Source of the DNA: Wolbachia endosymbiont of Drosophila innubila
GTDB taxonomy: Bacteria > Pseudomonadota > Alphaproteobacteria > Rickettsiales > Anaplasmataceae
Assembly (NCBI RefSeq): GCF_021378375.1
Contig: NZ_CP076228.1
Location: forward strand, 120,001-152,000
DNA: 32,000 bases
Direction: 5' to 3'
Shown here: positions 16,743 through 23,892 of the stretch, piece by piece
Numbering within the stretch: the first letter of the stretch is position 1
Layout: the number at the start of each line of letters is the position of its first letter
Program-made: the position numbers and the translations under genes
The notes under the pieces: model-generated
Told to the model about the DNA's origin: nothing
Databases searched by the model: none
What the model saw: only the letters and a program-made list of their open reading frames with translations

Positions 16743-16937
16743 TCACATTTTTTTATTTACATAACAGCACATCTCGTAGATATTCTCAGATTTACGCTAC
16801 GATATCTGTATATCATGACATATAACTTTTTTACCATTTGTTGGTACTATTTTTAAAATTATGTGAGGTTGAGGATGCTTGAAGATCATCCTGTTTAGGG
16901 GGCAAAATGTTCTCGCCATGGTATTGACTATCAAGAG

Positions 16938-19145
16938 TTGTGGCTCATATTATTTCTCATGCGTGTGATGGATAAAAAATGTCCTTTCCGCTTAGCTACA
17001 GAATTGAAGTCAGCTGCAGGCTTTGATGATGTTGTTCTCCAATGTAAGCAAAATAAAACAACAATACATAGGTTTGTGCAAGTCAAACACAAACAAGATG
17101 GAACTGAAAAAATCAGTGTAGGTAGCTTATTAACAAAGAGTGGTGAGTTTAATTTGTTGAAATACTTTATTGCTTATTTAAAGATCAAAAGTAATGGAAA
17201 GTTTAAGGGTGAGATGAAGTATTTTGCTATTGTTACGAATATTGATTTTGATTTCACAGATTCAGCACAACATGAAGTGAGAAAGCTGAGAATGATGTCG
17301 AGTGGAAAGAATAAAGAAAAGGAAATTTCAGTTATAAGAATAGACACACAAGATGAGTTTCTGGATGTAGGTGATGGTGTAAGATATAAATTTGATAATA
17401 GTATTATCTCATACTTGCAGGAAAATAAGGATTTTATAAAGGGTAAGGTAGGTAGAGAAGTCAGTGATAAAGAAGTCGAAGACTTTTTAAATGAACTAGT
17501 GTTTGCGGTTAATTTGCCCAATGAAAGTCAGCTAAAAGAATTGTTTAAAGGTGAGATGAGTGGTAGATTGGCCAAAAAGTTTGGCTATGTTGGTGACAAT
17601 GAAATCTTTTGCAATGACCTTCTGGAGAAAATATCAGACTGGGTGAAAGATATAAAAGGACGTTTTCTTTCGCCAGAAGAAGGAAAAGAATTTTTCCAAA
17701 AAGTGGAGCTATGGGCCAGCACTCTATGTGGGATAGAACGAGGGGTAAAGAAAGGGAATAAAGGAATTGATAAAATAGCAAAACAACAGCATAAGGATAG
17801 TAAAACACTGAATGAAATACATGCAGCTGTAACAGCGCAAAATAACAAGCAAAGACCCCATAAGAAACCTTATGGTCCTCGTGACAAAAAATCGAAAGCA
17901 AGAGAAGAAGGAGATATAGAAGAATCAGATGAATTTGATGAAATAGAAGCTTTAGAATTTGTTAAAAGGGCTTTGAATATAGAAAACAATTTACAGAATA
18001 AGGAAATAAAAAAGCTAGCACAGGAACTACAATATTCCCAATTGGCTTTAAAACTAGCGGTTACATATATTAGTGAAGAAAATATTGTATTTAGTCATAG
18101 GGGTAGAAAAAGGATTAGAGTTGGTGGCTATCTGAAAAAGTGTGAAAAGATAGCAGAGAAGCTACTTGACTTTAAGTCCGAATATAAAAGTGATCGTTAT
18201 GCTAAGGCAACTTTCATAACTTGGAAAATTACAATTGATGCTATAGTGCAAAAAAAATTTGGGCCGGAAGCATTGAGCATTCTCGAGATAATGGCCTATT
18301 TTTCTCCTAATGAGATTTATATAGAAGAAATCTTTTCACAGCAAGTAGCTAATGATAAAGAAGCGTTGTGGAATGCTGTTGAGTTACTTAATCGATATTC
18401 AATGATTAAATTAAGGAAAGGAGTAGTAAATATTTACAGACTAGTGCAAAAGGTGACTAGATTAAAATTACAAGAGAAAGGCCGAGAAGAAGAGGTCTTA
18501 AGGAAAGCTCTAGAATTGATAAACAGTTATGATGTATTAATAGATAATTCTATTGTTGCATCTGTTTGGGGATATGTGAGTAAGTATGGTGAGTTAATTG
18601 ACGAATTTTACTTTAATCCTATTTATGGTAAATGGAAATATACACCGTTGCATTCACTTGCCGAAAGTGGCAGTTATGAGGCAGTTAGGTGCGTATTAAC
18701 ACATATGGAAGAAAAACACCCAGATAAATTTAATTGTGTTGTTAATGCTAGGGATGGATCTGACAGCACTCCATTGTGTTCAGCTGTTGAGAGTGGAGGA
18801 TTGGACATAGTGCAATATTTTATCAATAAGGGTGCAGATGTCAATGCTAAGAGCAGATATGGTATCACTCCGTTACATCAGGCTGTTTATGATGGAAGGG
18901 TTGATATAGTAGAATACCTTATAGGCAAAGGGGCGGACATTAACGCTAAAGATGAAAATGGCAACACTCCGCTACACTTTGCTGCTATTATGGGAAATTT
19001 TGACACGGCTAGAGTGCTACTAAAACGCAAAGCAGATGTTAATGCTAAGAATAATAGGGGAATGACAGCATTACATTATGCCACTGATTTTGATCATAGG
19101 GATCTTGTGGAATGGCTTTTAGCTCATGGTGCATCCATCCTGTGA
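16938..19145 (+). CDS. ankyrin-repeat protein with a nuclease-like N-domain and an NB-ARC-like helical/winged-helix core lacking a P-loop (possibly a pseudogene)
   Basis: N-terminal 'GIDYQELW...ATE..(8)..FDDVVLQ..(16)..VQVKH' fits the DUF4297/Cap4-endonuclease-like pattern. 'LAQELQYSQLALKLAVTYI' is a GLPLAL-like motif. 'LSILEIMAYFSPNEIYIEEIF...LLNRYSMIKL...IYRLVQKVTR' is winged-helix-like. Five ANK repeats occupy aa ~568-735 (TPLH..G..D.V..L...GADVNAK). The open frame runs back to a TAG at 16896, which is preceded by an SD and an ATG at 16875. Confidence 0.8.
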   Translation: MWLILFLMRVMDKKCPFRLATELKSAAGFDDVVLQCKQNKTTIHRFVQVKHKQDGTEKISVGSLLTKSGEFNLLKYFIAYLKIKSNGKFKGEMKYFAIVTNIDFDFTDSAQHEVRKLRMMSSGKNKEKEISVIRIDTQDEFLDVGDGVRYKFDNSIISYLQENKDFIKGKVGREVSDKEVEDFLNELVFAVNLPNESQLKELFKGEMSGRLAKKFGYVGDNEIFCNDLLEKISDWVKDIKGRFLSPEEGKEFFQKVELWASTLCGIERGVKKGNKGIDKIAKQQHKDSKTLNEIHAAVTAQNNKQRPHKKPYGPRDKKSKAREEGDIEESDEFDEIEALEFVKRALNIENNLQNKEIKKLAQELQYSQLALKLAVTYISEENIVFSHRGRKRIRVGGYLKKCEKIAEKLLDFKSEYKSDRYAKATFITWKITIDAIVQKKFGPEALSILEIMAYFSPNEIYIEEIFSQQVANDKEALWNAVELLNRYSMIKLRKGVVNIYRLVQKVTRLKLQEKGREEEVLRKALELINSYDVLIDNSIVASVWGYVSKYGELIDEFYFNPIYGKWKYTPLHSLAESGSYEAVRCVLTHMEEKHPDKFNCVVNARDGSDSTPLCSAVESGGLDIVQYFINKGADVNAKSRYGITPLHQAVYDGRVDIVEYLIGKGADINAKDENGNTPLHFAAIMGNFDTARVLLKRKADVNAKNNRGMTALHYATDFDHRDLVEWLLAHGASIL

Positions 19146-19662: not shown

Positions 19663-21036
19663 TTACCAGGTTGTTGTACCATCTTCATTGTCAGAAATTG
19701 TAATCCCCATTTGTTTCAACTGATCCCTTATTTTGTCTGCAGTATCGTAATTTTTATTTTTTTTTGCAATTTTTCTTAAGTCTATCAACCTTTCTATTTC
19801 TTGATGATTTACATCCACAGCAAACCACTTTTCATAATTTGACTCAAGAAGACCAATAAATCTGGCACTCTTAACAAAACTCTCAGTTAATTTTAGCTTT
19901 TCACTTTCATTACTCATTTTGTTAATTTTTGCAGCCATTTCATGTAATATAGCTAGAGCTTCAGGAATGTTTAAGTCGTTTTTTAAAGCGTCTATAAAAT
20001 CTTTAGAAATCTCTGCGTTACTTTCATCAATATTTATTGTATCTAAACCACGTGATAGCCGATAAAATTTATTTAAGGTTTCCTGTGCGTCAGAAATAAC
20101 GTTTTCTGTCCAATCAAGTGGTTTTCTGTAGTGAGTTTTGAGCAGTGCATAGCGTATTACTTCACCCTTTATTCCACTATCTAGCAAATCTCTTACTTTG
20201 ACTATATTAAATAAGGACTTGCTCATTTTCTCTTCATTTACTGTAAGAAAACCGTTATGTATCCAGTATTTTGCAAACATTGATCCAGCAAATGCAGACT
20301 TACTCTGTGCAATTTCATTTTCATGGTGAGGAAATTGTAAATCTATGCCGCCACCATGAATATCAAAATCTTTGCCAAGGTAAGCATATGACATTGCTGA
20401 GCATTCTATATGCCATCCAGGTCTGCCCTCTCCCCATGGGCTATTCCAATAACTTGAAAGTTTGTAGTCAATATCATTTGCAGGCTTCCACAGCACAAAA
20501 TCTCCCGGGTGCTTTTTATTTTCATTAACTTCAACTCTGCTACCTGGAACCAATTCATCAGTTTTTTTTCCTGATAAAGCACCATATTCATGGTAAGATT
20601 CTATATTAAAATACACATGTTTGTCAGATTCATAAGCGTGGCCTGATTGTAGCAAATGTTCAATTAATTTTATAATATAATCTACGTTTTTCGTTGCTTT
20701 TGGCTCGTGTGTTGGCTCTGCACAATTTATGCTTCTCATATCTTCATGAAAAGCCTTGGTGTAATATGTGCTGATACTTTCTATGTTGCTATTTTTTTCA
20801 CTTGCTGCATTAATTATCTTATCATCAATGTCGGTTATGTTACGCACATAGGTAACTTTGCCATAACAAAACTTAAGTAGCTGAAATAACACATCATACA
20901 CAACAACAGACCGTGCATTGCCTATATGTGCTGTGTCATATACTGTTGGTCCGCAAACATACATTTTCACATGATCTTTATCGATAGGTGTAAAAAGCTC
21001 CTTTTTTTTTGTTAAGGTGTTGTAAAGCCTAACCAT
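19663..21036 (-). CDS. cysS: cysteine--tRNA ligase
   Basis: '[33 protein letters not shown]' and 'KMSKS'. The start is placed at the ATG at 21036. The 11-codon extension in the ORF track lies over the exoD 3' end. Confidence 0.95.
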
Positions 21037-21685
21037 ATACGAAGCTTTTGAGAAAAGAAAATGCCCCAATGATAAGTTGTGGCCCTTTGACTACTACAAC
21101 AAGAGTAAGCAATAGCCCACACAATGATATTAAAACTCCCAATATGGATAGAAACCCATCTTTACTCATAATGCCAAGCGAAATAAGAGTCGTACCAATT
21201 GCAGGAATGAAGTTAGTAAGAGGCAATGGAAGAGCTATCGATAATGCAGAAAGCAACATTACAAAAGCTAAAATCTTTTCACCGGGCCCATAGAAAATGA
21301 AAGACAGTCTTGGCTTCATGAATTTTTCTATTTTTTCTAATACAGGGGAAGTTTTCTCTACCACAAGAGCTAGTGTTGAACGCTGAAAAGATCTTCTTTC
21401 TAGCCAACTGGGCATCCAAGGAGAATCAAATCCAAATAGAAGCTGCAGTGAGAATAAGATTAAAGGTATAGAAAGAATAGTTGTATAACCAGGTGGAACC
21501 GGTATAGGCACCGATAGCGGCAAGGAGAAGATGATTATTAAAATACTAAAACCGCGCTCATGCAAAGCTGTTTTAATGTCAAACAAAGTTACTTTATTGC
21601 TATCATTGTTATTGGTATCTGCAACCTCTTTTAGAATATCAGAAGCTAGTTTATCACTTTTAGTCAACTTATCATTTTTTGACAC
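21029..21685 (-). CDS. ExoD-family membrane protein, copy 1
   Basis: 218 aa with '[44 protein letters not shown]...[11 protein letters not shown]', the ExoD-family pattern. GTG start. Its 3' end overlaps the cysS start by 8 nt. Confidence 0.8.
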
Positions 21686-21775: not shown

Positions 21776-22432
21776 TTAAAGTGTTGTAAAGCTTTTAAGA
21801 AGAGAAAGTGCTCCGGTTATAAGTTGTGGTCCTTTGACTATTACAACAAGAGTAAGCAACAACGCGCACAATGATACTAAAACTCCCAATATGGATAGAA
21901 ACCCGTCTTTACTCATAATGCTAAGTGAAATAAGAGTTGTGCCAATTGCAGGAAGGAAGTGAGTAAAAGGTAATGGAAGAGCTATTATTATTGCACAAAG
22001 CAACATCATAAAAGCCAGAATCTTCTCACCAGGCCCATAGAAAATGAAAGACAGTCTTGGCTTCATGAATTTTTCTATTTTTTCTAATACAGGGGAAGTT
22101 TTCTCTACCACAAGAGCTAGTGTTGAACGCTGAAAAGATCTTCTTTCTAGCCAACTGGGCATCCAAGGAGAATCAAATCCAAATAGAAGCTGCAGTGAGA
22201 ATAAGATTAAAGGTATAGAAAGAATAGTTGTATAACCAGGTGGAACCGGTATAGGCACCGATAGCGGCAAGGAGAAGATGATTATTAAAATACTAAAACC
22301 GCGCTCATGCAAAGCTGTTTTAATGTCAAACAAAGTTACTTTATTGCTATCATTGTTATTGGTATCTGCAACCTCTTTTAGAATATCAGAAGCTAGTTTT
22401 TTATCTTTAGTTAGTTTCTCACTTTTTTGCAC
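21776..22432 (-). CDS. ExoD-family membrane protein, copy 2 (tandem paralogue)
   Basis: 218 aa, offset exactly 747 bp from copy 1. Nucleotides 22032-22399 are identical to 21285-21652. Confidence 0.8.
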   Translation of the reverse strand: MQKSEKLTKDKKLASDILKEVADTNNNDSNKVTLFDIKTALHERGFSILIIIFSLPLSVPIPVPPGYTTILSIPLILFSLQLLFGFDSPWMPSWLERRSFQRSTLALVVEKTSPVLEKIEKFMKPRLSFIFYGPGEKILAFMMLLCAIIIALPLPFTHFLPAIGTTLISLSIMSKDGFLSILGVLVSLCALLLTLVVIVKGPQLITGALSLLKSFTTL

Positions 22433-23815: not shown

Positions 23816-23892
23816 GGGACTATAGCTCAGCAGGATAGAGCGTTGGACTCCTAATCTGAAGGTCGTGCGTTCGAATCGCACTAGTCCCACCA
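23816..23892 (+). tRNA. tRNA-Arg (anticodon CCU), CCA encoded
   Basis: Acceptor GGGACTA/TAGTCCC, D-arm GCTC..GAGC, anticodon loop CT-CCT-AA, T-arm GTGCG-TTCGAAT-CGCAC. Confidence 0.92.

Follow-up and report, generated by a model that had tools for sequence, protein, structure and literature searches.

The 32,000-nucleotide stretch of DNA analysed here (the window; NZ_CP076228.1, positions 120,001 to 152,000) comes from the Wolbachia endosymbiont of Drosophila innubila. Downstream of gatB it carries one long open reading frame (ORF), the product of which would join a Cap4-like nuclease head, the ARC1 and winged-helix parts of an NB-ARC module and a tail of ankyrin (ANK) repeats, with the nucleotide-binding core missing in between. 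By its sequence, the gene is an orthologue of WD0147 of wMel, from a supergroup-A, wMel-like Wolbachia, and alignment indicates that it descends from homologues that bear the NTPase. We consider it probable, with appreciable room for doubt, that the gene is an eroding relic of a P-loop-less allele that formerly served a function independent of the NTPase. At best, the window copy yields a clipped ankyrin scaffold protein; most likely it is a relic.

The missing ATPase is the central observation. A regular-expression search of the three forward frames of 16875–19145 (positions are those of the window) found no Walker A ([AG]xxxxGK[ST]) and no hhhhD[DE] motif, in agreement with the first-pass annotation, which had reported neither Walker motif and had suspected that the nucleotide-binding switch was deleted. 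Alignment with full-length homologues bears this out as a genuine internal loss of the NB-ARC P-loop core. In intact homologues the Walker A motif is GLGGIGKSE and Walker B is LFIFDNAE, and these proteins also carry ILITSRD. Like the window gene, the gene for the intact orthologue P0002 (locus L002) immediately follows gatB. Residues 330–482 of P0002 (153 residues) are replaced by 'RP' in the window after nucleotide 17852, with five more residues gone before EALEFV. According to the DNA alignment and residue counts, the net loss relative to P0002 is 156 codons, in frame, and it takes away GLGGIGKSE, LFIFDNAE and ILITSR. On either side of the gap the relationship to NTPase-bearing genes is visible: the window and L002 are 97–99% identical over the first ~450 nucleotides, and ARC identity is ~60–67% between the window and many Walker-A-bearing proteins. 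P0002, P0010 and P0004 score above the Pfam NB-ARC cut-off and most relatives carry Pfam NB-ARC, whereas the window protein has no Pfam NB-ARC match and its best match P0001 also falls below the cut-off. Since the ATPase is deleted, a nucleotide-driven switch of the NLR type would not be possible, and the window protein would be unable to bind or hydrolyse nucleotide or to assemble through the nucleotide-binding domain.

That the ATPase is instead cryptic or frameshifted, or that the deletion is an assembly error, has next to no probability. A hidden P-loop is ruled out by the three-frame search, by the clean DNA-level gap against L002 and by the domain models: AlphaFold2 and Foldseek place the Cap4-like domain in residues 1–295, with deletion scar and ARC from residue 319 on. 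Residues 100–335, where a cryptic P-loop might have been sought, belong to the Cap4-like domain and to the helices that extend it. An assembly artefact is ruled out by the identical junction in many independent assemblies, including that of wMel.

To the left of the deletion, the head was modelled by AlphaFold2 with ten aligned family members as input, which gave an α/β core with a helical extension at pLDDT 78.7. When the model was compared with the PDB by Foldseek, almost all matches were Cap4-type defence nucleases, namely HamA (8zue), Cap4 (6wan, 6vm6, 6wam, 6vm5, 7yib), LmuA (9nxx), an Avs3 chain (8dgc) and DUF4297-HerA (8ziq, 8zir), with E values of 2e-6 to 3e-2 and probabilities of 0.87–1.0 for these named hits. 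The Cap4-type PADLOC model SAVED_PDDEXK matches the first 100 residues (E 6e-8). Pfam gave no match for the window head, which missed the gathering score of PF14130 (Cap4_nuclease); homologue P0098, which is 61% identical, exceeds that cut-off (31.7 vs 26.2 bits), and the LmuA and CBASS endonuclease models of PADLOC match the intact homologue P0002. Sequence-profile searches of the PDB with the head and ARC alignments returned nothing relevant, and the link to Cap4 and Apaf-1 comes from fold comparison only. On the model, the head adopts the Cap4/DUF4297 nuclease fold, as the first-pass annotation had proposed from sequence motifs; activity on double-stranded DNA is a prediction from this fold.

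The residues named in that annotation (E22, FDD29–31, VV32–33, QVK48–50 and H51) hold if they are counted from TTG 16938. Among them, FDD29–31 and Q48-V-K50 are kept and invariant in the family, and would form a putative catalytic D...(E/Q)xK motif. The FDD, QxKH and TNxDFD columns are invariant across the family, and all family-invariant head columns are kept in the window. The G-x-x-YQ motif that had been placed in the protein is present in the DNA, as GIDYQ, but it lies between an in-frame TAG and TTG 16938 and thus outside any startable ORF. As the first head helix is upstream of the first usable start, no complete Cap4-like domain is contained within the translatable ORF.

The region behind the head had been described as a low-complexity linker. 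As a single element this does not stand: it comprises a conserved long helix (H259–294 in the model), which alignments with P0002 and P0014 also place in intact homologues, and a 31-residue scar of the NTPase. The first 23 residues of the scar (from HKKPY on) are modelled as disordered (pLDDT 26–27), and the last eight enter the first ARC helix. From there on, the ARC/winged-helix assignment of the first-pass annotation is supported by several searches. Pfam DUF7779, the winged-helix domain of NB-ARC-like proteins, scores 27.9 bits on the middle region against a cut-off of 27. NCBIfam FxSxx_TPR, which describes an NB-ARC-TPR protein, covers window residues 343–540 with model positions 150–346 only, compared with 8–347 in the intact P0002. 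A model of the middle region (window 17859–18695; pLDDT 74.4) matched Apaf-1 (3sfz and 1z6t, TMq 0.52–0.54), NRC2, NRC1, RPP1 and CED-4, which marks it as the ARC1/winged-helix part of an NB-ARC module. Intact homologues carry ELQYFPLALGQA and NIHRLVQ at the sites that had been read as the 'GLPLAL' motif and the winged helix. The window sequence departs from them at 10 of 52 ARC positions (those conserved in ≥85% of 25 non-redundant intact members), compared with a median change of ~2% in intact members. Among the changes are F380S and P381Q, both within FPLAL, and the His of IHRLVQ is replaced by Tyr.

The tail contains five TPLH-type ankyrin repeats, the number counted earlier, and is matched by Pfam Ank families with E values of 1e-32 to 1e-47 (Ank_2 159 bits, Ank 131 bits). 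Compared to the wMel-like locus L001, two repeat blocks of 297 and 360 nucleotides are gone, at 18953/18954 and 19014/19015, and both losses sit between near-identical repeat sequences. Repeat number drifts, with five in the window against about eleven. On the reading traditionally given to Wolbachia ANK genes, this tail would be functional on its own, as a secreted effector acting on host proteins, with the NLR ancestry irrelevant. WD0147 is indeed catalogued among the wMel ankyrin genes, and host-targeting screens have covered it (PMC3563639; 10.1101/2025.05.15.654400); the ANK region matches models of Legionella Dot/Icm Ank effectors below threshold; and bumblebees acquired by transfer a homologue that has NB-ARC and Ank domains (10.1101/2021.05.27.445509). 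However, the Legionella models score far below their cut-offs (e.g., 74 bits against 600), the allele at locus L004 has an insertion sequence (IS) element between the ANK tail and the remainder of the gene, and purifying selection, described below, also acts on ARC1, which an ANK-only effector could spare. We regard a secreted ankyrin effector as improbable.

The assignment to WD0147 follows from the homology searches. The best match, P0001, is 100% identical over the query and represents a cluster of 139 members at 90% identity, which includes AAS13899.1 / WP_010962394.1 (P0078, 954 aa) of the Wolbachia of Drosophila melanogaster. P0001 is encoded on L001 in a gatB...cysS context, and its length equals that of the wMel protein after a seven-residue start offset. 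The wMel protein shares with the window gene the TTG-type start (MWLILFLMRVMDKK), the junction NNKQRPHKKPY, YSQLAL and IYRLVQ; it differs in having 954 instead of 735 aa, two ANK blocks (99 + 120 aa) being absent from the window. NNKQRPHKKPY, YSQLAL and IYRLVQ occur in every long cluster member listed, and a Walker A motif in none of them. The exact window protein sequence is absent from a collection of 15 billion proteins. Truncated cluster members carry the NCBI name 'dsDNA nuclease domain-containing protein'.

Almost all relatives found in the homology searches are from Wolbachia, and the family, with a Cap4 head, NB-ARC and an ANK or TPR tail, is by this measure widespread in and almost confined to that genus. 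The first-pass annotation had called a nuclease-STAND-ANK gene unusual for an endosymbiont, which does not agree with so large a Wolbachia family or with the identity of the gene as the known WD0147. Among the papers found, the literature treats WD0147 only as an ankyrin gene, and functional work on it is lacking according to the bumblebee paper (10.1101/2021.05.27.445509). Wolbachia proteins with NB-ARC and ankyrin domains were noted earlier in the eukaryotic association module of phage WO and read as eukaryotic-like (PMC5062602, PMC6133264, PMC10438800). Within an incomplete coverage of the literature, which is not proof of absence, we found no paper on the Cap4-like head, the P-loop deletion or the age of the deletion in WD0147, and no prior description of a Wolbachia Cap4/NLR-like family.

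A second lesion lies at the 5' end of the gene. The first-pass annotation had placed the ORF at 16875–19145; the end is correct, but translation from 16875 meets an in-frame TAG after seven codons ('MLEDHPV*GAKCSRHGIDYQELW'), a nonsense codon at position 8 that had been missed. At this codon the orthologues at L002 and L003 have TGG (W), and the DNA alignment with L002 places the responsible G-to-A change at 16897; the wMel-like L001 has TAG like the window. The stop therefore removes the Shine-Dalgarno-linked start and the first nuclease helix. The frame is open again from 16899, with TTG 16938 and then ATG 16959 as first usable start codons.

Sister alleles carry independent lesions. Of the 15 close group-A relatives listed in the 90% cluster, not one has an uninterrupted full-length ORF; the lesions include the nonsense codon, IS insertions and truncations, and many cluster members are short fragments. 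The listed members with an intact N-terminus are all truncated downstream, and the long members all start after the stop. The allele at L003 (P0083) has an insertion of ~845 bp with an IS5-type transposase fragment inside the ANK region, and that at L004 (P0092) has an IS630 element of ~950 bp at the ARC/ANK border. The syntenic allele L025, from a metagenome, combines a stop in place of W in the head with a frameshift at the junction. The group-A proteins P0083, P0085, P0086 and P0075 have an intact N-terminus (MLETYPVWGSK...) and already carry the deletion, so the deletion predates the nonsense codon.

The deletion itself is old, to judge from its presence in diverged alleles. The junction Q-R-[PS]-HKK[PS]Y-[GA][PS]..KK.KA.EEG.. 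recurs in L024, L025 and L008, which also share derived ARC1 motifs (YS[QR]LAL, KLAVTY, KKCEKIAEKLL) that are absent from intact genes. L024 stems from a louse (Menacanthus) symbiont, where it lies in a trmE...rplU context, and L008 from a Penenirmus symbiont; in the ARC region the L024 protein P0020 is 74% and the L025 protein P0039 87% identical to the window. L024 might be taken for a gene split in two, which is ruled out by the nature of the split, a run of N with overlapping flanks. Once this run is bridged, L024 reads 702 codons without a stop; its contig end is untidy, and an intact L024 ORF is plausible, not proven.

The alleles downstream of gatB (window 16743–19145 compared with L002, L003 and L004) are recombinant mosaics. 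The window is 97–99% identical to the intact L002 up to ~17190 and 55–82% beyond, whereas identity to L004 is 66–72% in the head and 94–100% from ~17640 on. For this reason whole-gene dN/dS (nonsynonymous to synonymous rate ratio) was rejected as evidence of selection after the deletion, and the test was limited to the ARC1 block of 115 codons directly after, and linked to, the junction, using Nei-Gojobori counts on what is a short, recombining block with non-independent pairs. Deletion-bearing pairs gave dN/dS of 0.215–0.48 at dS 0.11–0.33, compared with 0.17–0.26 for intact pairs at similar dS (0.2–0.5); in pairs that include the window allele the ratio was 0.2–0.3, equal to that of intact paralogues. 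Under neutrality the expected synonymous fraction is 0.21–0.31 (κ 1 to 8), against observed values of 13/25, 13/28 and 15.5/31, an excess of synonymous changes with P 0.0007–0.06 across mutation models. Purifying selection is seen on ANK as well as on ARC1. With moderate strength, this points to an old P-loop-less allele that was under constraint for much of its history; such selection on an allele that lacks the P-loop argues for an NTPase-independent role during part of that history. The stronger proposal, that selection has maintained a P-loop-less bacterial NLR for an NTPase-independent job across diverged Wolbachia (fly, louse and metagenome) and at two genomic sites, we hold only tentatively and consider rather unlikely. 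If this is true, candidate roles would be those of an ankyrin-guided nuclease, of an adaptor, or of a regulator that acts on paralogous NLR-like proteins in the triangle of symbiont, phage and host.

Several observations weigh against reading the window gene as a relic. Past the stop, a frame of 735 codons has stayed open in a genome of 34% G+C, the head retains FDD, QVK and the other invariant columns, selection on ARC1 after the deletion was as strong as in intact genes, and the wMel homologue is reported to be expressed in fly gonads (10.1101/2021.05.27.445509). Together they allow a functional, N-terminally clipped protein. Translation of such a living, switch-free variant would restart at TTG 16938 or ATG 16959, and its head-ARC-ANK chain would function free of control by nucleotide. 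The long linker helix might then serve for pairing in an ankyrin-guided nuclease or adaptor; alternatively, the protein might regulate intact paralogous NLR-like proteins or act as a decoy for them. The preservation of reading frame by the deletions, the dN/dS values in pairs with the window allele, the invariant catalytic-type residues, the 702-codon frame of the bridged louse-symbiont allele and the reported transcription all fit this proposal. On the other hand, the codon-8 stop takes away the Shine-Dalgarno-linked start and the GxxYQ helix, no convincing ribosome-binding site can be read in the sequence before 16938 or 16959, and a promoter and terminator scan gave no more matches than shuffled expectation. 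Furthermore, sister alleles are cut at differing sites (L003 within ANK, L004 at the ARC/ANK border), which indicates that no common functional core is kept, and the abundance of short fragments and the drift from about eleven to five repeats point in the same direction. We therefore judge a functioning switch-free protein in the window to be unlikely, although it deserves serious consideration. The first-pass annotation had offered a decay product and a switch-free variant as alternatives; they need not be, since the gene can be described as an old, selected P-loop-less allele that is now being disrupted.

The architecture of intact members suggests how they may work. In those proteins the ANK or TPR tail would bind a trigger, after which NB-ARC would exchange nucleotide and oligomerise; the nuclease heads would thereby be brought together, become activated and cut DNA, in a mode resembling that of Avs3. 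Cap4/DUF4297 nucleases need dimerisation or oligomerisation, and DUF4297-HerA and Avs3 are activated by dimerisation or tetramerisation (PMC11291478). In the lineage of the window, in-frame deletions removed both Walker motifs and the sensor-1 strand, leaving head, helix, scar, ARC1 with the winged-helix domain, and ANK. Without the nucleotide-binding domain, the oligomerisation route to nuclease activation would be closed, and today only a product from TTG 16938 or ATG 16959, devoid of the conserved GxxYQ helix, would be possible.

Among known systems, the antiviral STAND protein SeAvs3 (PDB 8dgc) has the layout of intact Wolbachia members, with a Cap4-like head, a STAND NTPase and a repeat sensor, and the window head matches the Avs3 chain with a Foldseek E of 3e-3, probability 1.0 and TMq 0.47. 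The intact Wolbachia NTPase differs in being of the Pfam NB-ARC type with ANK or TPR sensors, whereas the window protein has no NTPase; the Avs/bNACHT models of PADLOC matched neither the window protein nor the intact P0002, P0010, P0004 and P0056. With Apaf-1, CED-4 and plant NLRs the window protein shares the ARC1 and winged-helix fold, and intact homologues pass the NB-ARC cut-off, but in the window the nucleotide-binding subdomain is deleted and the GLPLAL-type and MHD-type motifs are altered. Cap4 (CBASS), LmuA (Lamassu), DUF4297-HerA and HamA have heads of the same fold class; the window head has no SAVED, SMC or HerA partner fused to it, and its first helix is outside the startable ORF. 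The Bombus terrestris gene LOC105666162, according to its authors a WD0147 homologue transferred from Wolbachia, has kept the NB-ARC domain and is encoded in the insect genome (10.1101/2021.05.27.445509).

Searches around the family yielded additional observations. The Wolbachia proteins P0053 and P0056 (loci L014, L016 and L021) share this head and NB-ARC but end in TPR instead of ANK repeats; sensor tails are swappable in the family. In the Cardinium endosymbiont of Nabis limbatus (L023:3764-8395, NZ_OZ239769.1), an ORF of >1544 aa that runs off the locus end combines the same Cap4-like head (HGNIYQ...FDDLVF...FLQAKHKQ) with a NACHT NTPase (Pfam PF05729, aa 897–1052) and ankyrin repeats; the head is therefore shared by unrelated endosymbionts and is paired there with a different STAND clade. 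P0065, P0069, P0111, P0134 and P0140 contain the head or NB-ARC region in spider (Trichonephila) and mayfly (Ephemera) assemblies, by lateral transfer or Wolbachia contamination. A profile scan of contigs with the single protein gave no matches, the patterns being too specific, and with alignment A2 it returned 19 loci, none of them a close group-A relative. A large homology search with the junction region gave six matches, none with the deletion.

WD0147 belongs to the strain that is released in mosquitoes for dengue control, and it has been screened as a possible host-manipulation factor with no account of the kind of protein it is. Our results describe it as a remnant of a Cap4-nuclease/NB-ARC/ANK protein with an Avs3-like layout, and recast it and its large Wolbachia family as immune-type or addiction-type modules instead of 'eukaryotic-like' genes. 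Functional studies should allow for its lesions, i.e., the codon-8 stop and the lack of an ATPase. Should the hint of post-deletion selection hold up, the allele would be a natural experiment on an NLR scaffold without its switch.

Table 1. Features of the WD0147 orthologue and its upstream neighbour, in window coordinates.
Feature	Position	Strand	Remarks
gatB	15318–16742	+	upstream neighbour
Ancestral translation start	16865–16898	+	Shine-Dalgarno-like GAGG boxes 16865–16868 and 16871–16874, ATG 16875, seven codons, TAG 16896–16898
Cap4-like PD-(D/E)xK nuclease head (model-based)	16899–17651	+	residues 1–251 counted from 16899; AlphaFold2 model, Foldseek, PADLOC
GIDYQ (GxxYQ motif)	16920–16934	+	between stop codon and first usable start
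Long ORF at the locus	16938–19145	+	735 aa, TTG start; from the ORF listing of the window
FDD and QVK	17022–17030 and 17079–17087	+	putative catalytic motif of head
Long helical linker (…WASTLCGIERGVKKGNKGIDKIAKQQHKDSKTLNEIHAAVTAQNNKQ)	17652–17852	+	common to intact homologues; ends at left deletion breakpoint (after 17852)
NB-ARC deletion scar RPHKKPYGPRDKKSKAREEGDIEESDEFDEI	17853–17945	+	31 residues in place of 187 residues of P0002 (Walker A, Walker B and ILITSR included)
ARC1 (helical), winged-helix and following helices of the NB-ARC STAND module	17946–18605	+	DUF7779, FxSxx_TPR, Foldseek
YSQLAL	18033	+	in place of FPLAL
IYRLVQ	18432	+	in place of IHRLVQ
Five ankyrin repeats and stop codon	18606–19145	+	TGA 19143–19145; Pfam Ank families, L001 alignment

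The gene is the only long plus-strand ORF at the locus and is followed by a small VTT-domain gene and then cysS, both on the minus strand. On the other side, a 1.2-kb ORF-poor spacer (window 14133–15317) separates ruvX from gatB. It holds several copies of a palindromic unit of ~30 nucleotides (tcattccagtgc..gacactggaatcc), near 14327, 14535 and 14640, and a direct repeat of ~45 nucleotides near 14754 and 14911, which resemble Wolbachia palindromic or variable-number tandem repeats. Elsewhere in the window, two closely similar genes for 218-aa membrane proteins of the ExoD family (PF06055) form a tandem pair at 21029–21685 and 21776–22432, both on the minus strand. The RNA genes of the window are an alphaproteobacterial two-piece tmRNA at 669–1008 on the minus strand (Rfam RF01849, 234 bits) and, on the plus strand, tRNA-Ile(GAT) at 8521–8597 and tRNA-Arg(CCT) at 23816–23892.

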